From Firmicutes bacterium UBA1764 (GTDB lineage Bacteria > Bacillota > Clostridia > Peptostreptococcales > Anaerovoracaceae): DNA of 64,000 nt. Below the pieces are notes generated by a model that saw only the letters and a list, made by a program, of their open reading frames with translations, was not told the origin of the DNA and ran no database searches. Below are positions 8,629-64,000 of the stretch, in pieces (position 1 is the stretch's first letter; each line of letters starts with the position of its first letter). The stretch lies in assembly GCA_002315535.1 (NCBI GenBank), contig DCHA01000057.1, positions 676 through 64,675 on the forward strand, given 5' to 3'. The position numbers and the translations under genes are program-made.

Positions 8629-10215
8629 ATGTCCACACTTTTTTACAACGGAAAAATTCACACTATGGTATCCGAGCTTGATGAAAAAAGCTGGATGCTG
8701 GTTCGCTCCGGCAAAATCGAAAGGATGGGCACCGGAGAGCCTGATGGTGATTTAAAGTATAAAGAAAAAATTGATCTCGGAGGAAAGCATGTATATCCTT
8801 GCTTGATTGATGCTCATGTCCACATGCTGCTGACCATTGCTGTTATGGCAATGGGCTTTAGCGCGTGTGAGATTACAAGCGAGGGGGTTCGTCCGAATAC
8901 GATTAAGGGCGTCGGCGAGCGGATTCGCAGCTACGCCGAAAAGCAAAAGCCCGGAGCTGTCATTGCGCTGAATAATTATATTCTGACCGCAATTGACGAG
9001 CTGCGCATGCCGACAAAGGATGAGCTTGATGACTGGGCAGGCGGCAGAGCCATCGTAGTATACAGCATTGATGGTCACAGCACATCGCTTTCCACTAAGA
9101 TGCTTGAGCTTGTCGGGCTTGATCCGGCAAAATCTAACGGCGTTCTGCAGGGCGAGGAAAACGAGAGGATGCAGGGGCAGATTGTAAATAAGATAAGCTC
9201 GCTGATCAGCCTTCCGATGCTTGCAAAGGGAATTGCGAATTTTCATAATTATTGTGCGGACTACGGAATCAATATTGTCGGCGCGCTCGAGGGAAATGCA
9301 AATTGTGACAAGGATCCTATCACAGAGCTGGCGGTTAAGCTTGCGAGACATTTTGATGTCGGCGTCAGACTGTATCTGCAGTACACCGATATCAATAAGG
9401 TTCGCCCGTACGAAAAATACATGAAGAAAAAGCGTGTCGGCGGCTGCGGTGAATGGGAAACCGATGGTGCCAGCGGATCGCACTCTGCGGCATTTAGAGC
9501 GCCGTATAAGGACAACGGAATTATCGCAGGCACCTACTATACTCAGGATCAATTTGACGGCTTTGTAAAAAGCTACGCAGATGAAGGCTACCAGATTGCG
9601 ACACACGCAATCGGCGAGCTTGCAATAGAGCAGGTCCTGAATGCATATGATAAAAATGAAAACGGCAGATTCTTTAGAATAGAGCATTGCGAGTTCCATG
9701 ATGATGACGCATTCGAGAGGCTCGCAAAGGGACGCTATGCAGTCATGATGCAGCCCGGCTATGCATGGATAGATAAAAGATATCTTCACACATACGAACA
9801 ATTCCTAAACGAAGATATTTGCGCAAGACTTAAATTCAAAAAGCTACTTGATGCCGGAGTTTGCGTATGCGGTTCATCCGATGCTCCTGTTCAGGACATG
9901 GATCCGTATCTGCAAATGCTTGGAGAGACTCAGTTCTATAACGAGGCAGAATCAATTACCCCGTATCAGGCTCTGTGTACATATACAAAGAATGCGGCAA
10001 GGGCAATTGAGGAAGAGGACGAGTACGGAAGCCTCGAAGAGGGTAAGACCGCCGATTTCTTTACTGCGGATAAGGACTTCTTCAGTCTCAGTCCGGAGCA
10101 AATCGCTGATTTCAGACCGCTGCAAACCTACTACGGCGGTAAGCCCTGCAAGCGCTATAAAGGCACAATGCTTGAGCTTGCAAGGATGATGTTAGGCAAA
10201 GCAAAGTTAATATAA
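8629..10215 (+). CDS. metal-dependent amidohydrolase (Amidohydro_3 / YtcJ-like)
   Basis: 528 aa; DAHVHM metal-binding HxH motif near the N-terminus; C-terminal GSSDAP...; directly follows the permease. Confidence 0.7.
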   Translation: MSTLFYNGKIHTMVSELDEKSWMLVRSGKIERMGTGEPDGDLKYKEKIDLGGKHVYPCLIDAHVHMLLTIAVMAMGFSACEITSEGVRPNTIKGVGERIRSYAEKQKPGAVIALNNYILTAIDELRMPTKDELDDWAGGRAIVVYSIDGHSTSLSTKMLELVGLDPAKSNGVLQGEENERMQGQIVNKISSLISLPMLAKGIANFHNYCADYGINIVGALEGNANCDKDPITELAVKLARHFDVGVRLYLQYTDINKVRPYEKYMKKKRVGGCGEWETDGASGSHSAAFRAPYKDNGIIAGTYYTQDQFDGFVKSYADEGYQIATHAIGELAIEQVLNAYDKNENGRFFRIEHCEFHDDDAFERLAKGRYAVMMQPGYAWIDKRYLHTYEQFLNEDICARLKFKKLLDAGVCVCGSSDAPVQDMDPYLQMLGETQFYNEAESITPYQALCTYTKNAARAIEEEDEYGSLEEGKTADFFTADKDFFSLSPEQIADFRPLQTYYGGKPCKRYKGTMLELARMMLGKAKLI

Positions 10216-10277
10216 GCGTACCAGCATAATGAATCAAATAGTTCGCTGATTTAGAGTGAGACTTTTAATTAGTAGGA

Positions 10278-10322
10278 AAAACAATCCGCAGGATAATAAT
10301 CTATCCTGCGGATTGTTTAATT
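10278..10322 (+). terminator. rho-independent terminator
   Basis: AACAATCCGCAGGATA ... TATCCTGCGGATTGTT long perfect stem followed by TTAATT. Confidence 0.7.
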
Positions 10323-10375
10323 AATATAAAAAGAGTGAAATTTAATTATACTAAACCTAATGCCATCCACAATAA

Positions 10376-10843
10376 TACAGATGCTTCAACAGCGATGATG
10401 TTAACTACCATATTCGTGAAAGACCGACAGATATTACATTGCTGGCGAAGACTTTCTTTGAAGAATACTATTCCGCTTTTAACTTTGATAAAACATACAT
10501 CCCAATAGAATTGCTGCCGCTTTTGCATCAATATAATTGGCCCGGAAATATCAGGCAATTAAAGGCTTTTGTCGAGATGGTGTCTGTCTTATCTGATAAT
10601 GGGAAAGTTGATATAGCAGTGTTTAATAAAGCCATAGAAGAGTTGCCATTCTCATCGAATAACAATGGGGCTGATGAAAATAATAGTATACCTAAAGTAT
10701 CGTCTTTAAGAAAAATAGAAGAAGAACAAATCCGTTATGTTTATAAAAAGCATAACGGAAACCTCTCGAAAATCAGGGAGGAGCTTGGAATCAGCAGAAC
10801 AACGCTTTGGAAGAGGCTAAAGGAGTTGGGAATAACAGAATAA
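10376..10843 (+). pseudogene. 3' remnant of a sigma-54-dependent activator gene (end of AAA+ lid plus Fis-type HTH only)
   Basis: Frame is open only from 10376. It encodes ...IRERPTDITLLAKTFF...YNWPGNIRQLKAF...[14 protein letters not shown], collinear with the C-terminus of the intact regulator at 10890-12854. No Walker A/B or GAFTGA, and no RBS. Confidence 0.7.
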
Positions 10844-10845
10844 AT

Positions 10846-10877
10846 AAAGCCCGGGTTCATAATTGAACTCGGGCTTT
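10846..10877. terminator. bidirectional terminator between remnant and intact regulator
   Basis: AAAGCCCGGGTTCA-TAAT-TGAACTCGGGCTTT stem (one G-U). Confidence 0.7.
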
Positions 10878-10889
10878 ACTAACGATTGA

Positions 10890-12854
10890 TTACGAAAAAA
10901 TACTTTTATCTAATCCCATCTCTTTAAGTCTTTTCCAAAGGGTGGTTCTGCTGATTTGGAGCTCTTCACAGCACACTTTGATATTGCCATGGTGCTTTAA
11001 ATATGCTTCCTTAACGGCATCTTCTGATGCCTTCTTTTTTATTTCTTTGTCAGTAAGATTTGATTTGCCTTTTTCATCGTAATTTACATTGTTGATGTTT
11101 AATTGTTCTTTAGATTTAAGCACAGGAAGGTTAGATAATTGATATCTGACTTCAGTTTCCGTAATAAAACCATTATCGGATAAAACCGCTATTCTTTCAA
11201 TAAAGGCTTTAAGCTGTCTTACATTTCCGGGCCAATTATATTCGGTAATACACTTAATTTGTGCTTTAGGGATAGGATAGTTGTATCCGAATTCTTTATA
11301 TTTTTCCTCAAGGAATCTACATGCTAGAAGGTAAACATCATTACCTCTATTTCGAAGCGGTGGAAGGAATAACGGAAGGACGTCAAGTCTATAGAAAAGG
11401 TCATCTCTGAAACTTCCATCCCTAACGCTTTCTATTAAGTCTCTGTTACTTGCGCAAATAATCCTATTGTTGATAGGGATGAGCTGAGTCCCTCCTAAAC
11501 GGCAAATTTGTTTTTCCTGAATAAATCTTAATAGCTTTGATTGGAGTGACATGGGCATGGTTGATATTTCATCCAAAAAAAGTGTCCCATTATGAGATAG
11601 CTCAATCAATCCGGCCTTTCCTTGCTTTTTTGCCCCGGTAAAAGCACCTTCCTCGTAACCGAACAGTTCGCTTTCAAGTAAGGTTTCCGGTAATGCTGCA
11701 CAGTTTATTGCGACAAAGGGTCCGTTTGCAAAAGGGCTTGCATTGTGAATGCTTTGCGCAAGAACTTCTTTTCCGGTACCGCTTTCGCCGGTGATGAGTA
11801 TAGTGCTGTTTGTGGATGCATATCGCTTGGATTGTCTGCGTAGTTCATTCATTCCGGAGTCCGAGGTAATAATATCCGCAAAGTAACTTGTTGCGGTAAA
11901 GTTTTGCTCTGCGATTTTTTTTCGTATCTGTTGCTCTTTCTTTTGCAGTTCAGAAATGTTAGTTATTGTTCGAACCTTCGCAATGATATCAGTTGAAAAG
12001 GATGGCAGGGAGTTGATGGCATATTTTTTCCCTTGGAATTCAATAATTTCATTATCATTGCAATTAATCATATGAGATAATACGGGCCATCTGTATTTTA
12101 TGTAGTTTGGGTAATGCCCGATTATAGCCTCTCTGTTTAATTTAAAAATATTTAACAAAATATCGTTGCATTCAACGACTCTGTCATTATCATCAATAGC
12201 AATAATACCATCTGAAAGCTTGTTAAAGCTCTCGGACAGAGCGGTTCTGTACGCAAGTCTTTTTCTGTATGTAATTCCCTCATCTATTGCCCTTTGGAAG
12301 GTGTCTTTAATATTGTCTTTTTGGAATGGAACAAATATTACATCTAGTCCATTGTTTTCGCAGGAATTTGAGACAGACGAAACAGATGTAATTACTCTGT
12401 TCAATCCTGCCTCTTTTACAACAACACTGTAATCTCTTTCGAAATCCATTTGCTCTGCATAGTAGGGTACAATTTCAACCCCTGATACTTGAGATAACAG
12501 GTTGACATCGTATATTTTAGGGCTTCCTTTGAACTGAATGAACATTATCGGAGATTTATTAGTTTTGCAGTTGTTATTTAGTGCAAGTGCAAAATCAAAA
12601 AGATCCAAATCCAAATCAACAACCGGAATATCGACAGATTGTCTTATAAAGGCTGCTGAGTTAAATCTTGCAATGAAAGCTGTAATATCAGGATTGTCAT
12701 GCAATATTTTAACTGCAATAGGTCCGGATTCTTTAAATTTTCCTTCAGACAATACCAATTCGATGTTCATTTCGTTAGCAACACTTTCAATGGTCTGTAT
12801 TAAGAGTTCTGATCGATTAGGTAAAAAGACGCATATTTTATTTTTTTCAACCAT
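10890..12854 (-). CDS. sigma-54-dependent transcriptional activator (bEBP) with non-receiver N-terminal sensor domain (PrpR-N-like by eye) and PAS-like segment
   Basis: 654 aa; Walker A GESGTGKE, sigma-54 contact loop EEGAFTGA, Walker [18 protein letters not shown]-terminal [17 protein letters not shown]. Confidence 0.9.
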
Positions 12855-52011: not shown

Positions 52012-52082
52012 ATAAAAAACGAAGCAAAGTATAATAGATATTAATTGAAATGTTATTTTTAACAAGTGGAGGAACTGCAATA

Positions 52083-53297
52083 ATGAATATTAATGAGTTG
52101 AAAAGTATTCATTCTTGGGTAAAGAGTGAACTTAATTCATGTACAAACTTTTGGCTTAAATATGGAATAGATCATGAGCACGGTGGCGTTTATACCTGTC
52201 TTGACCGTGAGGGAAAGATTTTTTCCAGAGATAAGAGCGTTTGGATGCAGGGAAGATGTGCTTGGACCTTTGCTTTCCTCTGCACAAATTACGGGAAGAA
52301 TGATGAATGGCTTAGTGCAAGCAAGTCTTGTCTTGATTTCCTTGAAAAGTATTGCAGGAACTGGGCTGCTGATGGCAGGCTGTATTTTACCGTAACAGGA
52401 GACGGCAAGCCACTTAGACAGAGACGATATTGCTTCAGTGAAGGTTTTTATGCAATGGCTAATGCAGAGTATTACGCAAACACCGGAGATAAACTTTGTC
52501 TTGAAAGAGCTCGATGGGCATACGAAATGATATATAAGCTCAACAATGGACTTATCAAGGATCCTACAGGTATGGGTCCGAAAACTATCCCCGAGACAAG
52601 ATCGGGCAGAGCCTTTGCTGATGCAATGATTTATCTTAATATTACCAATGTTCTACGCAGATGTGATCCGGATATGACAGAATTATATGATGCCAGAGCT
52701 AAAGAATGCGTTGATAATATATTTAAATATCATTTCAAGCCTGAACTTAAGTGTACGCTGGAAGTTGTTGGGCCAAAGGGCGAACTTCAGACGGATACTG
52801 TTGCGGGCAGAGTTGTAAATCCGGGGCATGACATTGAAGGAAGCTGGTTCGTTCAGCAGGAAGCTCTTTATGAAAAGGATGAAGAAATGAGTAAGCAGGC
52901 GCAGGCAATGTTCAGATGTGCGCTTGAGGCCGGATGGGATAAGCAGTACGGCGGACTTTTATACTTTATCGATGCTCTGGGGATGCCGCCTGAAGCATAT
53001 GAACACGATATGAAGCTCTGGTGGACACACAATGAACTTCTCATTGCATCGGCAATGTATTACAGAGATACAAAGGACGAATACTATTGGGATTGGTTCG
53101 TTAAGACAGCGCAGTATTGTAAGGACCATTTTGCAGATCCTCAGTATGGAGAATGGTTTGGATATCTGAGACGTGACGGAAATCCTACAGAGCCGCCTTG
53201 CAAGGGTAGCACCTTTAAGGGCCCATTCCATGTTCAGCGCAGTCTTATTTATGTTGATAAAATACTCGATGATATTGAGGCCGAAATAAATGCTTAA
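52083..53297 (+). CDS. N-acylglucosamine 2-epimerase (AGE/RENBP family)
   Basis: FWLKYGIDHEHGGVYTCLDREGK..., GHDIEGSWF, WWTHNE motifs; GGAGGA RBS before the ATG at 52083. Confidence 0.8.
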   Translation: MNINELKSIHSWVKSELNSCTNFWLKYGIDHEHGGVYTCLDREGKIFSRDKSVWMQGRCAWTFAFLCTNYGKNDEWLSASKSCLDFLEKYCRNWAADGRLYFTVTGDGKPLRQRRYCFSEGFYAMANAEYYANTGDKLCLERARWAYEMIYKLNNGLIKDPTGMGPKTIPETRSGRAFADAMIYLNITNVLRRCDPDMTELYDARAKECVDNIFKYHFKPELKCTLEVVGPKGELQTDTVAGRVVNPGHDIEGSWFVQQEALYEKDEEMSKQAQAMFRCALEAGWDKQYGGLLYFIDALGMPPEAYEHDMKLWWTHNELLIASAMYYRDTKDEYYWDWFVKTAQYCKDHFADPQYGEWFGYLRRDGNPTEPPCKGSTFKGPFHVQRSLIYVDKILDDIEAEINA

Positions 53298-53991
53298 TCA
53301 GGTTTTTGACCCGGAAAATTTATTTTGGCGAATAGTATCAAGACTTGTTGACTTTGTCGGATTGAGTATATTTTGCGCAATACTTTGCATCCCGGTTGTT
53401 ACCGCGGTGCCGGCACTGTGCGCTTTGTATTATACGGTCGTAAAAGTCTTTTTGTACAAGCAAACTAGGACCTTCAGGATTTTCTTCCAGACTTTTGCGA
53501 GGGATTTCCTGAAAAATGTTGTAGTGGGATTGATATGTATCCCCATTATTGCCCTATGTGTGTTTGGATACTTGGTAATGTTCGCAAACAGTGGAACGAA
53601 TTTAGGGGCAATAGCCTTTGTAATCTATTACATATGCTTGATTGTTCCGGTTGGAACGGTTCTGTATGTAATATTTATTAATGCAAGATTCAGTTTGGGA
53701 AAGCTTGAGCTTTTCAAGCAGGCTCTATCCATGACCTTTGCGCATTTGCCGAGCACCCTGGTTTTGGTTCTGCTCAGCCTTGAGCTTTGTCTGTGGTCTG
53801 TGAATAATTGGACTCCCGCGTTGATTACCCCTTGCCTTTGGGCTCTTGTTTCGTCATTCTTTGTTGAGCGAAATTTCGAAAAGCATCTTTCTGATGAAGA
53901 AAAAGCTGCTTTCAGAGGCGTATCCCTCGAGGATTTTTACGAACAAGAAGCAAACAGGAAAAAAGCAAGGGCTACACTATTTCGGAAATAA
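53290..53991 (+). CDS. YesL/DUF624-family membrane protein
   Basis: 233 aa, 5-6 TMs; family commonly embedded in CUT1 sugar loci; overlaps the AGE stop. Confidence 0.6.
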   Translation: MLNQVFDPENLFWRIVSRLVDFVGLSIFCAILCIPVVTAVPALCALYYTVVKVFLYKQTRTFRIFFQTFARDFLKNVVVGLICIPIIALCVFGYLVMFANSGTNLGAIAFVIYYICLIVPVGTVLYVIFINARFSLGKLELFKQALSMTFAHLPSTLVLVLLSLELCLWSVNNWTPALITPCLWALVSSFFVERNFEKHLSDEEKAAFRGVSLEDFYEQEANRKKARATLFRK

Positions 53992-54610
53992 TTGGGACAA
54001 GTAGCTTTGCAAGCTGACTGTGCCCTTTTCTGGATAGATGCATAAAGTCAATTTTGTTAAATTCACAGCCCTCAGCATCAACGAAATAGCATCCATTGCG
54101 AAGAGCTACATCCTTTAAATAGGGTGCAAGCTGTCGGCTTTTTTCAATGCAGCCTTCTCCCATTACTGGATCGTTAAAGCCTTCCTTGATTTGGGGAGGG
54201 CAAACAATTAGAATGTTTTTCTTTTCAGTTTGCCAGCAATCTACGCTCTTTGCTTTATTTATCAGTCTTTCCATTCCTACTGCTATTGCTGCGGCATTGG
54301 CATTAAATCTTTCTTTTGTATCATTTGTACCAAGCATAATTACCAGCAGATCAATGAATTCGTGACTTTTCAAAAGAGGATAGGCAACGGACAGGGCATC
54401 CATGCTTTCATGAAGGGGGTCTTGAAATACTGTGGTACGTCCTGATAGTCCCTCTTCAGTTACAAGATAATTGCTTCCGAGTTTCTTTTGGAGAAGGCAT
54501 GTCCAACGCTCGTTTTCATTGAATCTTATTCCACCGTCTGCGCAGTCGCTTGGGTCCGCACAGTATCCGTGAGTGTTTGAATCTCCCAGACATAATATAT
54601 GTTTTCTCAT
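53972..54610 (-). CDS. SGNH/GDSL hydrolase (candidate sialate O-acetylesterase), cytoplasmic
   Basis: ILCLGDSNTHGY, GLSGRTT, MLGTND blocks. ATG at 54610 with GGAGGT RBS. Paralog of 38582-39214. Confidence 0.75.
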   Translation of the reverse strand: MRKHILCLGDSNTHGYCADPSDCADGGIRFNENERWTCLLQKKLGSNYLVTEEGLSGRTTVFQDPLHESMDALSVAYPLLKSHEFIDLLVIMLGTNDTKERFNANAAAIAVGMERLINKAKSVDCWQTEKKNILIVCPPQIKEGFNDPVMGEGCIEKSRQLAPYLKDVALRNGCYFVDAEGCEFNKIDFMHLSRKGHSQLAKLLVPIISEIV

Positions 54611-54819
54611 TGTTAACCTCCTGAATTGTATACAATTTATTATTATAGCATCGAATGAATTCGTTTTGTCAGGATTTAACACAAATAATAATTAATAATA
54701 ATTAAGAAAATAAATATTTGAGCTAAAGCTTGTTTTGTCTAACAAAAATTGTATACTTTAAGTGAGTAAGTTAGATAGGGATTTCTATCTGTTTAAGTTA
54801 CTATATTAGGAGGAAAACA

Positions 54820-56121
54820 ATGAAGAAATTATTAGCAGTACTTCTTGCACTGGCTATGGTACTTTCTCTCGCAGCATGCGGAACTAAGAAAGAAGAACCT
54901 GCACCAGTAGCAGAACCAACAAGCATCACACTCTGGACATACCCAATCGGTAACTGGGGCGATGAAGCTTCTGTAAAGGCATTAACAGATGCTTTCACAG
55001 CAGAAACAGGAGTTGTAGTAAATGTTGAATACCTTTCATACACAGATGGTGATGATAAGGTTAACACAGCTCTTACAGCAAACCAGGCTCCAGACCTCAT
55101 CATGGAAGGACCTGAAAGACTCGTTGCTAACTGGGGCGCAGCAGGCTACATGGTAGACCTCTCTGACCTTGTTGATGCTGAAGACAGAGCACAGCTCAAC
55201 CCGGCAGCATTCGCAGCATGTGAAACAGCTGATGGAAAAGTTTACGAATACCCACTCGTAATGACAGCTCACTGCATGGGAATCAACTATGATGCATTTG
55301 TTGAAGCAGGTGCTGATCAGTATGTTGATATTGAAAATCACACATGGACAACAGAAGGCTTCTTCAAGGCTGTTGAAGCTCTTAACGCTAAGTTTGGTGA
55401 CAACGTAGCAGCAGTATACTGCGGTGGCCAGGGCGGCGACCAGGGAACAAGAGCTATCGTAAATAACCTCTATGGCGGAACATTTACAAGCGCAGATCAC
55501 ACAAGCTATACATGGGATTCTGCTGAAAACGTAAAGGCTATTTCAGAACTTTATAACACAAAGGGAATCACATTTGATCCTGCTATTGTTGGCGGAGATG
55601 AAATCAACCTCTTCCGTCAGGGCGTTCTTAAGATGGCATTCTGCTGGAATATTGCTCAGCAGCTCAATACAGATAATAATGATGCAGGCTTAACAAACGA
55701 TGGACAGAGAATCGAATTTATGTCATTCCCATCAGAGACAGGCGCAAGCCAGCTTTGCGGTGGTATCTGGGGCTTCGGTATCTTCAACAATGGAGATGAG
55801 GCTAAGATCGCAGCAGCTAAGCAGTTCATTACTTATATGTGCGACAGTGCTCATACAGCAGAAGCTGTAAAGACAGCTAACTATTTCGCAGTTCGCAGCA
55901 CAGCAGGCGGCACAGATATCAGCAATGTTTGGGCAGACAATGAAATCATGAATGAATATAACGTACTTATGCAGTACCTCGGAGATTACTATCAGGTAAC
56001 AAAGGGTTGGGCAGCAGCACGTACAGCATGGTGGAATATGCTTCAGGCAGTTGGCGCTGGCACAGATGTACAGACAGCTGTATCTCAGTTCGCAGCAGAA
56101 GCTAACGCAGCTGCAAAATAA
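54820..56121 (+). CDS. carbohydrate ABC substrate-binding lipoprotein (CUT1; candidate sialic-acid SBP)
   Basis: MKKLLAVLLALAMVLSLAAC-GTKK lipobox; AGGAGG RBS; nan-cluster context. Confidence 0.8.
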   Translation: MKKLLAVLLALAMVLSLAACGTKKEEPAPVAEPTSITLWTYPIGNWGDEASVKALTDAFTAETGVVVNVEYLSYTDGDDKVNTALTANQAPDLIMEGPERLVANWGAAGYMVDLSDLVDAEDRAQLNPAAFAACETADGKVYEYPLVMTAHCMGINYDAFVEAGADQYVDIENHTWTTEGFFKAVEALNAKFGDNVAAVYCGGQGGDQGTRAIVNNLYGGTFTSADHTSYTWDSAENVKAISELYNTKGITFDPAIVGGDEINLFRQGVLKMAFCWNIAQQLNTDNNDAGLTNDGQRIEFMSFPSETGASQLCGGIWGFGIFNNGDEAKIAAAKQFITYMCDSAHTAEAVKTANYFAVRSTAGGTDISNVWADNEIMNEYNVLMQYLGDYYQVTKGWAAARTAWWNMLQAVGAGTDVQTAVSQFAAEANAAAK

Positions 56122-56166
56122 GGTAATACAGACTATTAAGTTTAGAACCTAAAAAAAGCATTACCG

Positions 56167-56208
56167 CGTCCTATCACCGAGTATTCGCGGTGGTAGGACG
56201 TTTTCTTT
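56167..56208 (+). terminator. attenuator/partial terminator after the SBP gene
   Basis: CGTCCTATCACCG-8 nt-CGGTGGTAGGACG followed by TTTTCTTT. Confidence 0.55.
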
Positions 56209-56226
56209 ATAAGGAAAGGTGCGTTT

Positions 56227-57135
56227 ATGAAACAGACAAATAAACCATCAATGAGCCGTGTGCTCAGACGAAGAGAGACTTTTTCAGCCTATCTCTTCCT
56301 TCTTCCGAGTCTGATCTTTTTTATAGGCTTTGTAATCATTCCAATGGTTCTTTGCCTTTATACAAGTTTCTTTGATTCAAAACTAAATGCAAATACCCCG
56401 GATGTTTTCGTGGGCTTTGCAAATTATGTAGAACTTTGGAGAGATCCGGTATTCAAGAAAGCATTAGTTAACACTTTAGTAATTGTTGTAGTAAGTGTTC
56501 CTACAGTAGCGGCATTTTCGCTTTGGGTTGCTTCGGCAATTTACAAGATGAAGGACTGGATGCTGAGTGCTTTCAGATGTATTTTTTATCTTCCTGTAGT
56601 AACAGGTTCCGTAGCTGTTACCGTAGTATGGAAGTGGATGTACAACAACTATTACGGAATTTTTAATTATGTATTAAAAGGCGTTGGTGCAATTGATAAC
56701 AACATAAACTGGCTTGGCAATCCAAGTACGGCGTTATGGTGTATCATCATCATTTTGTTTACCACATCTGTCGGCCAGCCAATTGTTTTATATGTTTCTG
56801 CTCTCGGAAACGTAGATGCAAGCTTGGTTGAGGCCGCAAATGTAGACGGCGCAAACAATCTTCAGTCATTCTGGAAGGTTAAGTGGCCATCAATTATGCC
56901 AACAACTCTTTATATTATCGTTATTACAACAATCAACAGCTTCCAGTGCTTCGCTCTGATCCAGCTGCTCACTTCAGGTGGCCCGAATAATGCAACACAA
57001 ACAGTAATGTATTACATTTACTACACTGCATTTAAGCTTTACCGTTTCGGATACGGAAATGCTATGGGTATTATTCTCGCTATCTTTATTGCAGTCCTCA
57101 GCGCATTCCAGTTCTGGCTTGCCAAGGAAAAGTAG
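56227..57135 (+). CDS. carbohydrate ABC transporter permease (MalF-like)
   Basis: EAA loop VEAANVDGANNLQSFWKVKWPSIMP. Confidence 0.85.
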   Translation: MKQTNKPSMSRVLRRRETFSAYLFLLPSLIFFIGFVIIPMVLCLYTSFFDSKLNANTPDVFVGFANYVELWRDPVFKKALVNTLVIVVVSVPTVAAFSLWVASAIYKMKDWMLSAFRCIFYLPVVTGSVAVTVVWKWMYNNYYGIFNYVLKGVGAIDNNINWLGNPSTALWCIIIILFTTSVGQPIVLYVSALGNVDASLVEAANVDGANNLQSFWKVKWPSIMPTTLYIIVITTINSFQCFALIQLLTSGGPNNATQTVMYYIYYTAFKLYRFGYGNAMGIILAIFIAVLSAFQFWLAKEK

Positions 57136-57150
57136 AAAGGAGAAATACAA

Positions 57151-58032
57151 ATGCGTACTAGGAAAAACAAAGGTGCATATTATGTAGTATCTCTGATTAT
57201 ACTGATAATACTTGCATTGCTGTTCTTGTTCCCTCTGTATTGGATTGTTACCGGGGCATTTAAAACCGGAGCAGAAATTAATTCTGTAACACCTGTTTGG
57301 TGGCCAACAGAGTGGGTTACAAATAATTTTGAAAAGCTCTTCTCTAAGAGATCAGCTCCGCTGTTTGAAATCGGATCACTGACAGGACCTGTCGTGCCCG
57401 GAGCAATCAGATGGCTGGTAAACACTGTGTTTATGGCTGTCGTTGCAATGGTACTTACTTGTATCACAGCTTCTATGGCAGGCTATGCTCTGGCAAAGAA
57501 GCGCTTCACAGGTCGCCATATACTGTTTACCTTGATAGTATGTGCTATGGCACTTCCGAAACAGGTAATACTGATTCCGCTTATCAGAGAAATGAGTACC
57601 CTGGGCTTGTACGATAAGATTTGGGCTGTAATATTCCCAACCGTCGGCTGGCCATTTGGAGTATTCCTTATGAAACAGTTCTCTGAGGGCGTGCCGGGAG
57701 AAATACTCGAAGCCGCAAGAATTGATGGCGCAAGTGAAGCCAGAACATTCAGCAGCATTGTAGTTCCGATTATTAAACCGGGAATTGGTGCTTTGGCTAT
57801 ATTCACATTTATTAATAGCTGGAACGATTACTTTATGCAGTTGATTATGTTGTCAAGCTCCAGCAAGTTGACGATATCTCTTGGTATTGCAACTATGCAG
57901 GCTGAAAACAGCACAGATTTTGGAATCATCATGGCAGGGGCTGCCCTTGCTGCACTTCCAATTATTATCGTATTCCTAATATTCCAGAAATACTTCACTC
58001 AGGGAATTACCATGGGTGCAGTTAAGGGTTAA
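57151..58032 (+). CDS. carbohydrate ABC transporter permease (MalG-like)
   Basis: EAA loop LEAARIDGASEARTFSSIVVPIIKPG. Confidence 0.85.
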   Translation: MRTRKNKGAYYVVSLIILIILALLFLFPLYWIVTGAFKTGAEINSVTPVWWPTEWVTNNFEKLFSKRSAPLFEIGSLTGPVVPGAIRWLVNTVFMAVVAMVLTCITASMAGYALAKKRFTGRHILFTLIVCAMALPKQVILIPLIREMSTLGLYDKIWAVIFPTVGWPFGVFLMKQFSEGVPGEILEAARIDGASEARTFSSIVVPIIKPGIGALAIFTFINSWNDYFMQLIMLSSSSKLTISLGIATMQAENSTDFGIIMAGAALAALPIIIVFLIFQKYFTQGITMGAVKG

Positions 58033-58047
58033 AATCGGAGGTCGGAA

Positions 58048-59160
58048 ATGGCAACATTACAATTAAAAAACATAAAGAAAATTTATGAAGGTGGAGTAGA
58101 AGCTGTTCATTCTTTCAACCTTGATATTGCTGATAAGGAATTTATAGTACTTGTTGGGCCTTCCGGTTGCGGAAAGTCCACAACTCTTAGAATGATTGCA
58201 GGTCTTGAAGAAATCAGCGAAGGCGAACTTTATATCGGGGATAAGCTTGTAAATGAAGTTGAGCCAAAGGACAGGGATATCGCAATGGTATTCCAGTCAT
58301 ATGCTCTTTACCCGTACATGACAGTTTACGAAAATATGTCGTTTGCTCTCAAGCTTCGTCATCTCCCCAAAGATGAAATTGATCAGAGAGTCAGATGGGC
58401 TGCAGAGGTTCTTGATATTACAAAGTATTTGGACAGAAAGCCAAAGGCTTTGTCAGGCGGTCAGCGCCAGCGTGTAGCAATTGGTCGAGCAATCGTAAGA
58501 GAGCCAAAAGTCTTCCTTATGGACGAGCCTTTGTCAAACCTGGACGCTAAGCTCAGAAACCAGATGAGAGCTGAAATCATTAAGCTCCGCAAGAAAGTAA
58601 ATACTACATTCATTTATGTAACTCATGACCAGACTGAGGCTATGACTTTGGGAGATCGTATAGTTATTATGAAGGATGGTTGGATTATGCAGATTGGTAC
58701 CCCTCAAGAGGTATTTGATCACCCTGCAAATATTTTTGTGGCAGGATTCATTGGAATGCCACAGATGAATTTCTTTGATGGAGAGCTTGCTAAAAACGGA
58801 GAAAAGTATCAGCTGACAGTAAACGGATGCCCGGTTGAAATTGGCGAAAGTTTACAGCAGGCTTTAAAGGAAAAGGATGTTCCTTCAAAGAAGGTAATCG
58901 TAGGATGCAGACCGGAGCATATCGAGCTTTCATCAGCTGATAATGCACTTAAGGCGACAGTAGATGTATCTGAAATGATGGGAAGCGAAATCCATCTTCA
59001 TCTTAATTGTGAAGGAAAGGATATCGTAATTCGTGTTCCAAGCACAAAGCTAAGTGCAGAACATCGCGGCGGATTTGAATTTGGAACAGATCTTAAATTT
59101 GCATTCCCGGCAGATCTTATTCATCTCTTTGATCCTGAAACGGAGAATAATCTTATATGA
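58048..59160 (+). CDS. carbohydrate ABC transporter ATP-binding protein (MsmX/MalK/UgpC-like)
   Basis: Walker [29 protein letters not shown]. Long runs identical to the 37363-38568 product. Confidence 0.9.
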   Translation: MATLQLKNIKKIYEGGVEAVHSFNLDIADKEFIVLVGPSGCGKSTTLRMIAGLEEISEGELYIGDKLVNEVEPKDRDIAMVFQSYALYPYMTVYENMSFALKLRHLPKDEIDQRVRWAAEVLDITKYLDRKPKALSGGQRQRVAIGRAIVREPKVFLMDEPLSNLDAKLRNQMRAEIIKLRKKVNTTFIYVTHDQTEAMTLGDRIVIMKDGWIMQIGTPQEVFDHPANIFVAGFIGMPQMNFFDGELAKNGEKYQLTVNGCPVEIGESLQQALKEKDVPSKKVIVGCRPEHIELSSADNALKATVDVSEMMGSEIHLHLNCEGKDIVIRVPSTKLSAEHRGGFEFGTDLKFAFPADLIHLFDPETENNLI

Positions 59161-59603
59161 TTCTGGCAAAAATAAAGGATGCCGCACAATATCGTGGCAT
59201 CTGTGTGTATTTAGATCGCGCATTGGAGCGTTTTGAGTCTGATTTGCCTGGACTTACTCCAGGGCATGTAGAAATTGACGGAAATAATCTGTATCTGAAT
59301 TGCTTTGACTATGAAAGTCTGCCGGAGTCAGAAACCATGTATGAGGCCCATGATCATATGGGGGATATCCATATTTGTTTAAAGGGTGAAGAAAAGGTTT
59401 ACATTGCGGAAACAACTCGATTGAGGGAAGTAAGCAGAAACAGAGAAGGCGATGTCTTTATGCTTGAGGGCGATGCAGATCAGGTTGTTATACTTAGGGA
59501 AGGGGACTTTCTTGTAGTATTTCCCGGAGACGCCCATAGAATAAAAATGCAAGTAAACGGACCTTGCGCCGTTCGCAAGGCGGTATATAAATTTAAATTA
59601 TAA
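59157..59603 (+). CDS. YhcH/YjgK/YiaL (DUF386) family protein (NanQ-like)
   Basis: 148 aa; ATGA overlap with the ATPase stop; H-x-...-D/H cupin-like motifs (EAHDHMGDIHI, FPGDAHR); nan-cluster context. Confidence 0.65.
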   Translation: MILAKIKDAAQYRGICVYLDRALERFESDLPGLTPGHVEIDGNNLYLNCFDYESLPESETMYEAHDHMGDIHICLKGEEKVYIAETTRLREVSRNREGDVFMLEGDADQVVILREGDFLVVFPGDAHRIKMQVNGPCAVRKAVYKFKL

Positions 59604-59618
59604 TCACAGAAAAGAAGG

Positions 59619-60554
59619 TTGATTTCATTGAAAGATATTACTAAATATCAAGGCATTTTTCCGGCTTTTTATGCATGTTATGACAAGGACGGCAATATTT
59701 CCTTGGAAGGTGTAAAAAAGCTGACAGAGTATTTTATTAAGGTTGGAGTAAAGGGAGTATATGTTGGCGGAAGCTCCGGCGAATGCATCTACCAGGACAA
59801 GGAAGAAAGAAAGCAGCTTCTGGAAACGGTTGTTAAGACTGCTGCTGGCAGACTTACAATTATTGCGCACGTTGCTTGTAATAACACAAGGGACTCCGAA
59901 GAGCTTGCAAGACATGCAGAGTCTTTGGGCGTAGACGCAATCGCATCTATACCTCCGATTTATTTCAAGCTTCCTGATTATGCGATTGCAGAGTATTGGA
60001 ACGATATGTCTAAGGCTGCACCGAATACGGACTTTATCATTTACAATATTCCTCAGCTTGCAGGTGTATCTCTCGGTATTCCCCTTCTTAAGGAAATGCT
60101 CAAGAACCCAATGGTTGTTGGCGTAAAGAATTCATCCATGCCTGTTCAGGATATCCAGATGTTCAAGGATGAGGGTACAATGGGCGGTCGTCCTTTCGTT
60201 GTATTTAACGGACCTGACGAACAGCTTTGTTCCGGATTGGCAATGGGTGCCGACGGTGGAATAGGCGGAACCTACGCCGTAATGCCGGAGCTTTACCTGA
60301 AGATATATGATTGCATTCAGAAGGGCGATATTAAGACTGCAAGAGAAGTACAGAATGATGCAGACAGAATTATATATGCACTTTGTGCCTGCAAATGTAA
60401 TTTGTACGCTTCAATGAAGGAGATAATGAAGAGAAGAGTCGGAATTGATCTTGGCGGAGTGCGTAAACCTCTTTATAATATTACTGATGCAGATACAGAT
60501 CAGCTCAACGTATGTGAAAAAATGATTAACGAAGCAGTAAGCAAGTGGTCATAA
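59619..60554 (+). CDS. nanA: N-acetylneuraminate lyase (DHDPS/NanA family)
   Basis: GIFPAFYACYDKDG..., GVYVGGSSGE, VGVKNSS Schiff-base Lys region. TTG start; the in-frame TTG at 59628 fits the GAAGG RBS slightly better. Confidence 0.8.
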   Translation: MISLKDITKYQGIFPAFYACYDKDGNISLEGVKKLTEYFIKVGVKGVYVGGSSGECIYQDKEERKQLLETVVKTAAGRLTIIAHVACNNTRDSEELARHAESLGVDAIASIPPIYFKLPDYAIAEYWNDMSKAAPNTDFIIYNIPQLAGVSLGIPLLKEMLKNPMVVGVKNSSMPVQDIQMFKDEGTMGGRPFVVFNGPDEQLCSGLAMGADGGIGGTYAVMPELYLKIYDCIQKGDIKTAREVQNDADRIIYALCACKCNLYASMKEIMKRRVGIDLGGVRKPLYNITDADTDQLNVCEKMINEAVSKWS

Positions 60555-60565
60555 AAAAGCTCTTT

Positions 60566-60599
60566 AACGGGATCGACTATGTCGGTCCCGATTTTTTTC
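60566..60599 (+). terminator. rho-independent terminator ending the nan operon
   Basis: CGGGATCGAC-TAT-GTCGGTCCCG followed by ATTTTTTT. Confidence 0.85.
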
Positions 60600-60702
60600 G
60601 ATAGTTTCATATTCCAAAAGGGATTAAGAGACGAACAAGTATAAAAAATAACACAGGTACTCTGATGATATAATATAATCGCTATATTAAGGAGTGAAGA
60701 CT

Positions 60703-62634
60703 ATGGAAAGCAAATATTCAGGCTACATGGGACGTGTCGTAATGTACGACCTCAGCACCCAAACACTCACGGATTATCCGTGGTCTGACAGAGAGCGCGA
60801 GCTTTTCATTGGCGGTAAAACAATGGCATCAAAGATCATGCTGGACAATTTTACCGGACAGGAAAAACCGTTCTCCGAAGAAAACTTAATCGTTATCACG
60901 ACAGGTCCGCTCACAGGAACAGGGGCCCCAAGTTCCAGTCGTTTTAACATCTCAACATTATCTCCACAGACTCTTATTACAACATCATCAAACTGCGGTG
61001 GCCGCTTCGGATGGTATCTGAAGAAGGCCGGTTTTGATGCGCTTATTCTCAAGGGTAAGTGCCCGGAGCATTCATGGCTTGAAATCAACAATGACAAGTT
61101 CGTAATGCACAACGCTGATGATTTATGGGGTCTTAAGACCGGAGAAACGCAGGAAGCACTGCAGGAAAAGCACAAGATGCCTAACGGTAAGCTTATGAAG
61201 TACGGACAGCTTGCAATAGGACCTGCCGGAGAAAACCAGGTTCTCTATGCATCGGTAATAAGCGATGAAAGAGCATCCGGAAGAGGCGGCGTTGGTGCTG
61301 TATTCGGATGGAAGAACCTCAAGGCTATTACGGTTCGCGGTAACAAGACAGTCCCTGTTAAGGATCCTGAAAAGACAAAGCAGTGGATCATCAAGTGGGA
61401 TAAGTACATCAAGTCTCATCCGCTTACAGGAAACCAGCTGCCGAGACTCGGAACAGCAGGCCTTGTATCATCAATGCAGATGCGCGGAATGCTTTCATCA
61501 AAGAACTATAACTACGGTAAGTATGAACACTTCGACAAGGTAAACGGCGAAACTCTGGCAGAGGATTTCAATATCGTGAACAAGGGCTGCCTCACTTGCC
61601 CGATGAAGTGCGCAAGAACAGTAGAGGTTAACGGCAAGCCTGTTAAGGGTCCGGAGCTTGAAACTCTGGGACTTTTGGGCGGCGGAATCCTAAATCCTAA
61701 CCTTGCCGATATTCTAAAATGGAATTACGAGATAGATGAGCTGGGTATGGATACAATCTCTGCATCATCAACTCTGGCATACGCTATGGAGGCAAATGAA
61801 AAGGGCCTCTGGAAAAACGGACTCGAGTTCGGTAAGACCGATAACATCTCTCAGATTTGGGATGATGTTGCTCACAGAAGAGGAATCGGCGCAGAGCTCG
61901 CAGACGGATCCAAGAGACTTTCCGAAAAGTACGGCGGAAAGGAATTTGCAATCCATTCCAAGGGTATGGAGCTTGCGGCATATGAACCAAGACGTGCGGT
62001 TGGTCAGGGCCTCGGATATGCAGTATCCAACAGAGGAGGCTGCCACTTAAACGGCGGCTACCTGGTAATTGTTGAGGGCCTCGGTCTTTATACAAATCCG
62101 CTTACCCACCACGCAAAGGCAGACTTCACAATGCTATTCCAGAATCTCATGGAAACAATTTCAGCATCAGGACAGTGTCTCTTCACATCCTATGCGTTTT
62201 TCCCGGGATTCCTTATCACAAGACCTAATGGTGTAATTACAACAATTGCAAATAAAGCAATTCCGTTCATCGGAGGCGTGCTGAGACTTATCAACAGAGT
62301 ATCTCCGGCCTTGGCTTTGCATTTGCCTGTATTCCACCACACAAAGATCTTCAGCTATGCTTTGGGCATGCCAATGACCTTTGGTAAGTACATAAGAACA
62401 GGTGAAAGATCCTACAACGTTGAAAGGCTGGTAAACAGCAAATTCGGTGTAAATGCTTCTTGGGATACACTTCCTAAGAGACTTACTGATACTCCGCAGG
62501 ATCCAAACAATCCAAAGACTAAGGTACCTCTTGAAACGCTCAAGAAGACCTATTATAAAGCCCGTGGATGGGATCAGAACGGACTTCCGACCAAGCATAC
62601 CTTAAGAAAGCTTGGCCTTGGCGAATATTGTTAG
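60703..62634 (+). CDS. aldehyde:ferredoxin oxidoreductase (tungstopterin AOR family)
   Basis: GYMGRVVMYDLSTQ...FIGGKTMASKIM N-terminal AOR domain; CLTCPMKC [4Fe-4S] motif. ATG at 60703 with AAGGAG RBS; the GTG at 60694 overlaps the RBS. Confidence 0.85.
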   Translation: MESKYSGYMGRVVMYDLSTQTLTDYPWSDRERELFIGGKTMASKIMLDNFTGQEKPFSEENLIVITTGPLTGTGAPSSSRFNISTLSPQTLITTSSNCGGRFGWYLKKAGFDALILKGKCPEHSWLEINNDKFVMHNADDLWGLKTGETQEALQEKHKMPNGKLMKYGQLAIGPAGENQVLYASVISDERASGRGGVGAVFGWKNLKAITVRGNKTVPVKDPEKTKQWIIKWDKYIKSHPLTGNQLPRLGTAGLVSSMQMRGMLSSKNYNYGKYEHFDKVNGETLAEDFNIVNKGCLTCPMKCARTVEVNGKPVKGPELETLGLLGGGILNPNLADILKWNYEIDELGMDTISASSTLAYAMEANEKGLWKNGLEFGKTDNISQIWDDVAHRRGIGAELADGSKRLSEKYGGKEFAIHSKGMELAAYEPRRAVGQGLGYAVSNRGGCHLNGGYLVIVEGLGLYTNPLTHHAKADFTMLFQNLMETISASGQCLFTSYAFFPGFLITRPNGVITTIANKAIPFIGGVLRLINRVSPALALHLPVFHHTKIFSYALGMPMTFGKYIRTGERSYNVERLVNSKFGVNASWDTLPKRLTDTPQDPNNPKTKVPLETLKKTYYKARGWDQNGLPTKHTLRKLGLGEYC

Positions 62635-62645
62635 GAGGTCTAAAG

Positions 62646-62915
62646 ATGATAAACGTTGAATTATTTGGTCTCTTCAGACTCGATACAAAGATAAAGGGCT
62701 TTGAGCTTGACCCTTCTGCAGAAGGCGTTAGCACAGTCAAAGACATTTATCCGATACTTCTAAAGAAGGCAAAGGAAGTTAATCCTGCAACCAAAATATG
62801 TGCAAAGGACATAGATGGTTGTATAATAATAATTAACGGAGTCCAGTCAAAAAAGAGTGCTCATGTAAATGATGGTGATAAGATCCAGCTCATGAGTCCT
62901 GTATGCGGAGGTTAA
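62646..62915 (+). CDS. MoaD/ThiS-family ubiquitin-like protein (C-terminal Gly-Gly)
   Basis: 89 aa ending ...SPVCGG-stop; GGAGG RBS before the ATG at 62646. The track ORF start at 62568 overlaps the AOR gene. Confidence 0.7.
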   Translation: MINVELFGLFRLDTKIKGFELDPSAEGVSTVKDIYPILLKKAKEVNPATKICAKDIDGCIIIINGVQSKKSAHVNDGDKIQLMSPVCGG

Positions 62916-62919
62916 TGAT

Positions 62920-64000
62920 ATGAGTGAAGAAGTAAAAAAAGATCAAGAGCCTCAGACTGAAGCTCCAAAGAAGAAGGTTGCTGCAAAGAAAGAGGAGGCT
63001 CCGGCAGAAAAGCCTGCTGCAAAGCCCGCGGCACCTAAGAAACCAAAAGACAAGCCTTATATTGATATGCCGACATGTGTAGGCTGCAGTGTCTGCATAG
63101 AAGCTTGCCCTATGGATTGCATCCAGCTTAGTGAGCCGAAGTTCCACGGCGACATTCGTACATATGCTTACCTTTCAGATGAAAAGAAATGTATCGGATG
63201 CGGAATGTGCGAAAAGGCTTGCCCGATTGATGTAATCACAATGTGCCAGCCGGGAGAAATTCCAGACAAATATACGAAGGGAGAAACTAGTATGTGTCAA
63301 GATTTATTTAAGGTTTACTGCAGAGTATTCCAGGCCGTTATGAAGGTGGGTAACTACTTCATGGGCTACAGAATGCCGGACTACATTCAGGGAGCAGGTT
63401 GCATCAAGCAGCTTCCGGGAATCATCAAGAGCAAGGGACTTACAAAGGTACTTGTAGTAACTGATGGAGGACTCCTCAAGCTGGGCGTTCCTGATGGACT
63501 TTTCGAAGCAATGAAGGAAGTTGGACTTGAATATGAAGTATTCAGCAACATTATTCATAACCCAACATCAGATAACGTAGAAGAGGGCTACAAGCTCTTC
63601 AGAGAAACAGGATGCCAGGGACTTATCGCATTCGGTGGCGGCGCTCCAATGGACTGTGCAAAGGCTATCGCTGCAAAGAACGCACATCCAAATAAGACTG
63701 TTGCACAGATGCAGGGACTCCTCAAGGTTCACAAGAAGATTTGTCCGTTCTGGGCAGTACCAACAACATCAGGTACAGGCTCCGAAACAACAGTAGCTGC
63801 TGTAATCACAGATTCCGCTACTCACCACAAGGCATCTATCAACGACCCATCAATTCTTCCAAAGTATGCGGTTCTCGATCCGGAGCTTACAATTGGTCTC
63901 CCACCATATGTAACAGCTCAGACAGGTATGGATGCTCTCTGCCACGCAGTAGAAAGCTACACCAACTGGACATATTGCACAGCACTTGAAAAGGATCTTT
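62920..64000 (+). CDS. fusion protein: Lys/Ala/Pro-rich tail + 2x[4Fe-4S] ferredoxin domain + iron-containing alcohol dehydrogenase (3' end beyond window)
   Basis: Hand translation from the ATG at 62920 is stop-free to 64000. It shows CVGCSVCIEACP and CIGCGMCEKACP, then Fe-ADH motifs GGGAPMDCAK, PTTSGTGSE, DALCHAVE. Not in the ORF track because no stop lies inside the window. Confidence 0.8.
   Translation, partial: MSEEVKKDQEPQTEAPKKKVAAKKEEAPAEKPAAKPAAPKKPKDKPYIDMPTCVGCSVCIEACPMDCIQLSEPKFHGDIRTYAYLSDEKKCIGCGMCEKACPIDVITMCQPGEIPDKYTKGETSMCQDLFKVYCRVFQAVMKVGNYFMGYRMPDYIQGAGCIKQLPGIIKSKGLTKVLVVTDGGLLKLGVPDGLFEAMKEVGLEYEVFSNIIHNPTSDNVEEGYKLFRETGCQGLIAFGGGAPMDCAKAIAAKNAHPNKTVAQMQGLLKVHKKICPFWAVPTTSGTGSETTVAAVITDSATHHKASINDPSILPKYAVLDPELTIGLPPYVTAQTGMDALCHAVESYTNWTYCTALEKDL

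Follow-up and report, generated by a model that had tools for sequence, protein, structure and literature searches.

A conserved ferredoxin-alcohol dehydrogenase fusion gene in a tungsten-type aldehyde oxidoreductase operon, with a candidate internal start site at the domain joint

The DNA analyzed here (the window) is a 64,000-nucleotide (nt) stretch of Firmicutes bacterium UBA1764 (Anaerovoracaceae; assembly GCA_002315535.1, contig DCHA01000057.1, positions 676 to 64,675 of the forward strand), which ends inside a gene that joins a ferredoxin (Fd) module to an iron-containing alcohol dehydrogenase (Fe-ADH). This Fd-ADH gene closes a three-gene operon that also encodes a tungsten-type aldehyde oxidoreductase (AOR) and a MoaD-like protein, and a convergent gene lies beyond it. 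The best overall explanation, which the comparison of sequences puts slightly above even, is that an AOR-linked Fd module tethers an NAD-type ADH to the AOR, and that free ADH is also produced from an internal start site at the joint of the two domains. The features of the Fd-ADH gene are as follows (aa, amino acids; SD, Shine-Dalgarno sequence; pLDDT, predicted local distance difference test; AF2, AlphaFold2).

62920..64000, + strand: Fd-Fe-ADH fusion gene; the window holds the first 360 of 528 codons
62907..62911, + strand: GGAGG SD for the main start, 8 nt before the ATG at 62920 (sequence reading)
62920..63057, + strand: Lys/Ala/Pro/Glu-rich N-terminal tail, aa 1-46 (low pLDDT, homologue comparison)
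63058..63255, + strand: ferredoxin domain with two [4Fe-4S] clusters, aa 47-112 (Pfam Fer4, Fer4_7, Fer4_9)
63256..63291, + strand: interdomain linker, aa 113-124 (low pLDDT in the AF2 model, aa 113-126)
63292..63294, + strand: internal in-frame ATG (Met125, codon 125), the ADH start codon in split and stand-alone orthologues
63292..64000, + strand: Fe-ADH domain, aa 125 onward (Pfam Fe-ADH, alignment to Mdh 8zrl, Foldseek)
63292-63363, + strand: subfamily-specific N-terminal helix of the ADH, aa 125-148 (conserved residues, AF2)
63634-63654, + strand: GGGAPMD NAD-binding motif, aa 239-245
63931-63945, + strand: metal ligands D338 and H342

The reading frame that opens with the ATG at 62920 continues without a stop for 360 codons through base 64000, in agreement with the first-pass annotation of this DNA, which had been made from the letters alone. 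That annotation placed the ATG 5 nt after the stop codon of the MoaD-like gene; the TAA (62913-62915) and the ATG were correctly located, but the intervening bases number four, and five is the count to the ATG itself. It also described the gene as missing from the list of open reading frames (ORFs), which is true but is an effect of the window edge only, because ORFs that run off an end are omitted from that list. The gene is predicted to end about 506 nt past the window, giving a full length of 528 aa. An identical gene of 528 aa was found in the independent Logan assembly SRR5323881 (locus L001, positions 10001-11587), where the convergent gene on its 3' side encodes an NTPase_1 protein. The architecture Fer4 plus Fe-ADH was present in all of the best 120 homologues (59-77% identity), which are annotated at source merely as "iron-containing alcohol dehydrogenase", and it extends over more than 100 protein clusters. 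These homologues form two length classes, one of about 490 aa with two cluster motifs and one of about 555 aa with four. Both domains are predicted to be folded in the AF2 model of the whole protein (predicted template modelling score, 0.78). Other genomes do carry split versions of the pair, as would be expected if a missed stop codon or an assembly frameshift had joined two separate genes here. However, such an artefact was rejected and has hardly any probability left, because the independent contig is identical and the frame is uninterrupted in 28 other genomes as well as in the protein clusters. By these comparisons, Fd-ADH is almost certainly a real, conserved fusion gene.

A scan of one genome per species yielded 80 loci from Clostridia, which were sorted by the AOR, MoaD, Fd, and ADH parts of the window locus that they contained.

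29 loci: AOR, MoaD, and fused Fd-ADH
15 loci: AOR, (MoaD), and Fd and ADH as separate genes
12 loci: AOR, (MoaD), and ADH without Fd
Rest of the 80 loci: ADH alone

Gut and rumen Clostridia thus carry the operon in three interchangeable forms, with Fd-ADH fused, with Fd and ADH as neighbouring genes, or with an ADH but no Fd. The nearest relatives of the window locus were metagenome-assembled genomes (MAGs) of Anaerovoracaceae, Lachnospiraceae, and Oscillospiraceae. The first-pass annotation had proposed comparing orthologues for a stop codon at the junction, and split operons with a stop and an SD exactly at this joint were recovered. In these, the end of the Fd gene ranges from an 8-nt overlap with the ADH gene to 105 nt before its ATG, and most have an SD-like purine-rich stretch before the ADH ATG (duplex energy ≤ -6 kcal/mol in 93%). 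In three split loci (L021, L025, and L040), Fd and ADH lie in the same frame and are parted by a plain stop codon, and the same split structure recurs in independent MAG pairs (L021/L041, L045/L077, and L040/L065). On a neighbour-joining tree built from the ADH domain, the fused, split, and lone loci are interleaved, which indicates several fusion or fission events. The window clade (L001-L004) is fused throughout, with the split locus L017 as its sister. The proposal that two formerly separate genes were fused by loss of a stop codon thus holds insofar as the gene is a true in-frame fusion with split orthologues; it does not hold as a recent event specific to this genome, the fused state being common to the whole clade.

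The joint itself carries the signals of a start site. The ribosome-binding site and ATG that had been noticed at the domain boundary are both in place, with AAGGGAGAA at 63277-63285 and its GGGAG core 8 nt before the ATG at 63292. SD strength was taken as the duplex energy of the 17 nt upstream with the anti-SD. The internal site of the window gene has an energy of -7.1 kcal/mol; the median at the joint of the fused loci is -9.1 kcal/mol, and values ≤ -6 occur in 27 of the 29. The SD at the joint is as strong as those of true ADH starts (-7.4 in split loci, -9.9 in AOR-linked loci without Fd, and -7.1 in lone ADH genes) and, when ranked against the other codon positions of its ORF, falls within the top 5% in 24 of 29 fused loci. 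When the measuring position was slid along the same fused genes, the SD core was found in 86% of loci at the joint and in 0-24% at 12 other offsets, and energies ≤ -6 in 93% and 0-21%, respectively. The residues that encode this SD vary (KGE, KEK, KGG, EEE, KEV, QGG, and ARR), and GGAG occurs in different codon phases. The codon at Met125 is ATG in 26 of the 29 fused loci, GTG in L014, TTG in L061, and CTT in L032; the SD is kept in both L014 and L061. L032 is the sole fused gene that lacks both the start codon and the SD at the joint and represents a natural "fusion-only" case. Furthermore, among 15 segments of 60 nt, the one at the joint had the least structure and the highest A content in 28 of the 29 loci. 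The orthologues conserve the in-frame start codon and an SD at a workable distance from it, and the predicted short product begins exactly where stand-alone orthologues begin. The idea, raised in the first-pass annotation, that one message yields both a fusion protein and a free ADH fits the conserved SD, the conserved start codon, the strength of the SD, and the unstructured mRNA. Because the SD and the start codon are kept at the joint, both products are probably made, and use of the internal start at 63292 is considered reasonably probable.

Two protein forms arise from in-frame internal starts in Escherichia coli infB (the IF2 forms), clpB, and cheA. The Fd-ADH gene shares with these genes an in-frame start with its own SD. 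It differs in that the predicted short form corresponds to the whole product of an ancestral gene, and in that split orthologues use these very signals as the true start of a gene.

The signals at the joint could instead be leftovers of an old start, or by-products of a flexible linker and of a hydrophobic residue that begins the ADH helix, in which case only full-length Fd-ADH would be made. This alternative is rather unlikely, although several observations weigh against the use of the internal start. With the protein held fixed, synonymous resampling found the SD to be only mildly stronger than expected (median fraction, 0.24; ≤ 0.1 in 7 of 29 loci), a result that is not extreme, so that the amino acids of the linker already encode SD-like strings and selection on the RNA is not cleanly separable from selection for a Lys/Gly/Glu-rich linker. 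Synonymous resampling was set aside as proof of RNA-level selection for this reason, in favour of the comparisons with other offsets, with real starts, and of mRNA structure. An A-rich linker alone would give a weakly structured mRNA; the replacements of Met by Val and Leu are also conservative changes and amount to three cases only; and the CTT of L032, where the SD has been lost, is no start codon. As to the comparison as a whole, the loci are mutually related, so that counts do not represent independent events, and in the MAGs from which many split loci come, a frameshift error can look like a split. Leftover signals could also be renewed by the frequent change between the fused and the split form. 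On the other hand, the SD persists in 27 of 29 fused genes despite variation in the sequence and length of the linker and in the codon phase of GGAG. It is no weaker than at real starts, and at the 12 control offsets of the same genes it is absent from most loci. Moreover, entire fused clades retain the SD even though their conserved ADH domains have diverged by 20-40%. The motif coincides with the domain boundary in almost every fused gene, and this location would also suit a pause site, at which an internal SD-like sequence slows ribosomes and lets the Fd domain fold and load its clusters first. Pausing at internal SD sequences is disputed, however, and it would leave unexplained the conserved start codon 6-10 nt downstream, its replacement by GTG or TTG, and the service of the same motif and ATG as a real start in split orthologues; a pause site is accordingly given very little weight.

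The case for an AOR-linked function comes from the Fd module and its neighbours. Two complete CxxCxxCxxxCP motifs, recognized already in the first reading of the sequence, are located at C53-P64 (63076-63111) and C91-P102 (63190-63225) in a region that matches Pfam Fer4/Fer4_7 (E ~3e-12). This is the layout of a 2x[4Fe-4S] ferredoxin, with two such motifs within ~55-70 residues, and the module resembles tandem clostridial-type ferredoxin domains. In an alignment of 73 sequences, all eight cluster cysteines are invariant or nearly so, and the domain is predicted to be folded (pLDDT 77-91 in the AF2 model). Four cluster motifs are present in 43 of the 73 homologues, whereas the window protein has two. 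The other genes of the operon, and the terminator that precedes it, are listed below.

60703..62634, + strand: tungsten-type AOR (WorL), 643 aa, first gene of the operon (Pfam AFOR_N 4e-64, AFOR_C 1e-107)
62646..62915, + strand: MoaD/ThiS-like "WorX"-type protein, 89 aa (Pfam ThiS 4.7e-6, TIGR01687 moaD_arch)
60568..60600, + strand: intrinsic terminator after a nanA-like gene (10-pair stem with 7 G-C pairs, 60568-60590, then ATTTTTTT)

The AFOR_N and AFOR_C domains place the first gene in the family of AORs and tungsten oxidoreductases (WORs); its best solved relatives are Acetomicrobium mobile WorL (9mqx_D, 4e-115), Pyrococcus furiosus AOR (1aor), and Aromatoleum aromaticum AorB (8c0z, chain 8c0z_A). 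Its ATG start was taken from the gene call on the independent contig. The AOR gene lies upstream of the Fd module in all 28 fused and all 14 split loci with enough flank, and the order AOR, MoaD-like, Fd(-ADH) is kept in the same 42 of 42; the module, like the small cluster-bearing subunit WorS, is thus encoded in the operon of the catalytic subunit. The Fd module was never found on lone ADHs in the 80-locus survey. These observations make it likely that the Fd module works with the AOR.

The Fd could instead serve the ADH, as a redox switch or in the protection or repair of the oxygen-sensitive iron site, with the AOR merely a neighbouring gene. It is indeed to the ADH and not to the AOR that the Fd is covalently joined, in N- as well as C-terminal arrangements. 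However, Fe-ADH chemistry needs no one-electron carrier. Each of the testable Fd-bearing loci has an AOR beside it, no ADH without an adjacent AOR has an Fd, and closely related ADHs do without Fd both beside an AOR and alone. A role of the Fd in the service of the ADH is thus quite improbable.

A search for related fusions covered 1.84 billion representative proteins, with the ADH subfamily marked by its N-terminal YCR.FQ helix. Two independent single-chain ADH-AOR proteins were found (P0123 and P0124; 1026-1029 aa), and in P0124 the AOR half shares 48% identity with the window AOR along the entire length. Another fusion, P0126, has the ADH followed at the C-terminus by the same four-cluster Fd module. 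ADH, Fd, and AOR thus occur in three different covalent pairings, and this suggests that the three parts work in physical contact. P0136 is a fusion of ADH with an aldehyde dehydrogenase (ALDH), in the domain order opposite to that of AdhE. Further relatives of this ADH subfamily are fused to YhhN or PfkB domains.

The module is best compared with the small subunits of known tungsten enzymes. WorS and AorA are cluster-bearing partners of WorL that relay electrons from its cluster, and a four-cluster WorS/AorA subunit occurs in class II-IV tungsten oxidoreductases (PMC12318220, PMC13328260). In the class II WorL-WorS enzymes (P. furiosus WOR5/ASOR, Caldicellulosiruptor bescii GOR) and in AorAB of A. 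aromaticum, a tungsten AOR-family subunit is likewise paired with a neighbouring small [4Fe-4S] protein, and WorL-WorS systems likewise have a ThiS/MoaD-like "WorX" gene in the operon (PMC13328260, PMC12318220). The present system differs in that the cluster module is fused to, or lies immediately before, an Fe-ADH. Some points speak against equating the two. Four clusters are found in WorS and in the long relatives of Fd-ADH, against two in the window protein. The best 60 Protein Data Bank (PDB) matches of a four-cluster relative included no chain of WorS or AorA; the best matches of the Fd module were FwdF and MvhB, and RnfB, HydB, and PsaC were also among the best 60. By these matches, no closer relationship of the Fd part to solved WorS/AorA than to other polyferredoxins was detected. 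Because of the two clusters rather than four and the lack of a specific tie to the solved proteins among these matches, the module was classed as WorS-type in its working and not as a member of the family. In addition, Fe-ADHs lack a flavin, which leaves the Fd clusters unable to supply the ADH reaction, and the benefit of tethering is one that we infer.

In the favoured explanation, in which the AOR-linked Fd holds the ADH, the Fd module would be the dedicated electron-transfer partner of the AOR, in the role of WorS/AorA, and would pass electrons between the [4Fe-4S] cluster of the AOR and soluble ferredoxin. Through its fusion to the ADH, the Fd module would hold that enzyme next to the AOR, and the reactive aldehyde could be handed directly between the two steps. 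The ADH step would be alcohol + NAD+ <-> aldehyde + NADH, and the AOR step aldehyde + H2O + 2 Fd(ox) <-> acid + 2 Fd(red); the two steps could proceed either way. Translation from 62920 would give an Fd-ADH of ~58 kDa and translation from 63292 a free ADH of ~44 kDa, with the same extent as stand-alone orthologues, and the two starts would set the proportions in which tethered and untethered subunits enter the ADH oligomer. A physical complex of AOR and Fd-ADH with aldehyde hand-over, as read from these gene arrangements, is judged to fall a little short of even probability.

The assignment of the C-terminal part as an Fe-ADH was confirmed by a match to Pfam PF00465 on residues 154-321 (E 2.8e-49 for the part within the window), and PF25137 is recorded for the full-length protein. 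The predicted structure has the Fe-ADH fold, with an N-terminal dinucleotide-binding and a C-terminal helical domain, and Foldseek gave template modelling (TM) scores of 0.90-0.94 to Mdh, FucO, DhaT, and ADH2 at 31-34% identity. The motifs GGGAPMD and VVTD182 are invariant in the 73 sequences and align to Bacillus methanolicus Mdh (8zrl). The metal ligands, one Asp and three His (D338, H342, H408, and H422), are likewise invariant and align to the D..H and VHA...PHG motifs of Mdh; H408 and H422 lie outside the window and were read in the full-length protein (P0001). An Asp after the second strand is a sign of NAD over NADP preference, from FucO and Mdh. We infer that the ADH of the fusion uses NAD(H), because such an Asp (VVTD182) follows its second strand. 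No named equivalog passed in NCBIfam, the best being lactaldehyde reductase with 297 bits against a cut-off of 523. The stand-alone group III Fe-ADHs (B. methanolicus Mdh, Zymomonas mobilis ADH2, Klebsiella pneumoniae DhaT, and E. coli FucO) share the fold and the NAD- and metal-binding motifs with the fusion protein, which differs from these solved enzymes by the extra conserved helix at aa 125-148. This helix, YCRVFQAVMKVGNYFMGYRMP, is missing from solved Fe-ADHs, and PDB matches start near aa 152. R135, F137, Q138, M141, K142, Y146, Y150, and P153 in and around it are invariant in the 73 sequences. The helix is distinct from the Fd module and the tail, and it also occurs in lone ADHs and in the single-chain ADH-AOR proteins (AF2 confidence ~66). 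It may serve as an interface.

The N-terminal tail appears to lie outside the core mechanism. Residues 1-46 translate as MSEEVKKDQEPQTEAPKKKVAAKKEEAPAEKPAAKPAAPKKPKDKP, the low-complexity start that the earlier reading had described, and are predicted to be disordered (pLDDT 29-40; about 30 for aa 1-39). Among the two-cluster homologues (n = 29), the segment before the first Cys motif measures 11-26 aa, except for 52 aa in the window protein and 43 aa in P0012, so that tails of more than 40 aa occur in 2 of 29 (P0012 and P0001, the latter being the window protein). A docking arm, as suggested in the first-pass annotation, is not supported, because a tail that is long in only these two proteins is lineage-specific rather than a conserved element; it would be a disordered, lineage-specific expansion. 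No tandem repeat was found in the DNA of the tail, and an origin of the Lys/Ala/Pro tail by tandem repetition was rejected on this ground.

The MoaD-like protein ends in ...SPVCGG, and it agrees with the MoaD/ThiS (WorX) type of sulfur-carrier-like protein, a small beta-grasp protein with a Gly-Gly end that is encoded next to an AOR gene. Strict adjacency of MoaD and AOR genes has been described before (PMC1779556), and the 2026 classification of tungsten oxidoreductases names this MoaD/ThiS-like protein WorX (PMC13328260). The Gly-Gly codons (GGA GGT) build the GGAGG SD of the Fd-ADH gene, and the stop codon TAA lies between this SD and the ATG. The MoaD-like and Fd-ADH genes are packed for predicted coupled translation. 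The terminator after the nanA-like gene makes the AOR, MoaD-like, and Fd-ADH genes a three-gene unit of their own. Upstream of it lies a sialic-acid cluster (52050-60554) with genes for a GlcNAc 2-epimerase, a DUF624 protein, a GDSL esterase (opposite strand), a sugar ABC transporter, a YhcH/DUF386 protein, and a NanA-like lyase. A link of the operon to this cluster was rejected, since the terminator separates the two and none of the 80 other loci contains a homologue of nanA or YhcH. Neither a riboswitch (molybdenum or tungsten cofactor) nor any other RNA element matched Rfam at E ≤ 1 in 59500-64000, and no consensus promoter was called on the + strand upstream of the AOR gene, where only A/T-rich TATAAT-like strings occur. 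Among the loci without Fd, L043, L044, and L046 (Faecousia/Oscillospiraceae) have two tandem AOR(+MoaD) paralogues before the ADH gene. In L051 and L059, a distant AOR (26-28% identity) that has its own, separate ferredoxin gene lies 1.6 kb downstream of the ADH gene.

Known systems combine similar reactions in other ways. AdhE is likewise one polypeptide that links an aldehyde step to a homologous Fe-ADH and keeps the aldehyde bound. It consists of a CoA-acylating ALDH and an ADH, and both steps use NAD, whereas here the aldehyde step belongs to a separate ferredoxin-using tungsten enzyme and only the presumed electron-transfer module is joined to the ADH. An ADH and a tungsten AOR together form a route from ethanol via acetaldehyde to acetate (PMC4275255), and the same two-enzyme route with NAD and ferredoxin is used by Pelobacter and Thermacetogenium, among syntrophic ethanol oxidizers and acetogens (PMC4275255, PMC6436200). 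In contrast to these enzymes, for which neither fusion to a ferredoxin module nor tethering by one was found described, the genes here form one compact operon. A full-text literature search turned up neither an Fd-Fe-ADH fusion nor such an AOR-ADH operon, and the terms "alcohol dehydrogenase" and "ADH" do not occur in the 2026 WOR classification paper (PMC13328260). Each part is familiar by itself (AOR/WorL, WorX/MoaD, a two-cluster ferredoxin, and a group III ADH); what is new with respect to the searched literature is their arrangement.

Tungsten AORs are common in gut microbes, and most clades have no assigned role; the five-class WOR scheme counts cluster-bearing, flavin-bearing, and membrane partners only (PMC13328260). 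If the proposed reading is true, an AOR with its partner module joined to an ADH would be a further type beyond this scheme, with a role in the direct interconversion of short-chain alcohols and acids in which the aldehyde is kept bound. The widest form of this reading is tentative and is put below even on the genomic comparisons: gut and rumen Clostridia would possess an unrecognized class of tungsten AOR, in which an Fd module, docked on the AOR as its electron relay and fused to an NAD-dependent ADH, builds a two-enzyme assembly for alcohol <-> aldehyde <-> acid; two starts would set its composition of tethered Fd-ADH and free ADH, and the gene pair would have alternated repeatedly between the fused and the split state, the internal start having stayed functional in either. 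No enzyme type other than AOR is known to reduce non-activated acids (PMC9295118), and for biocatalysis a natural assembly of AOR and ADH, in which the acid is carried on to the alcohol, would be of interest. The fused, split, and Fd-free operons, together with the retained internal start, would provide a natural case for reversible gene fusion and fission and for two products from one ORF. For the organisms themselves, such an assembly would bear on aldehyde detoxification and on the balance of alcohols and short-chain fatty acids in the gut.

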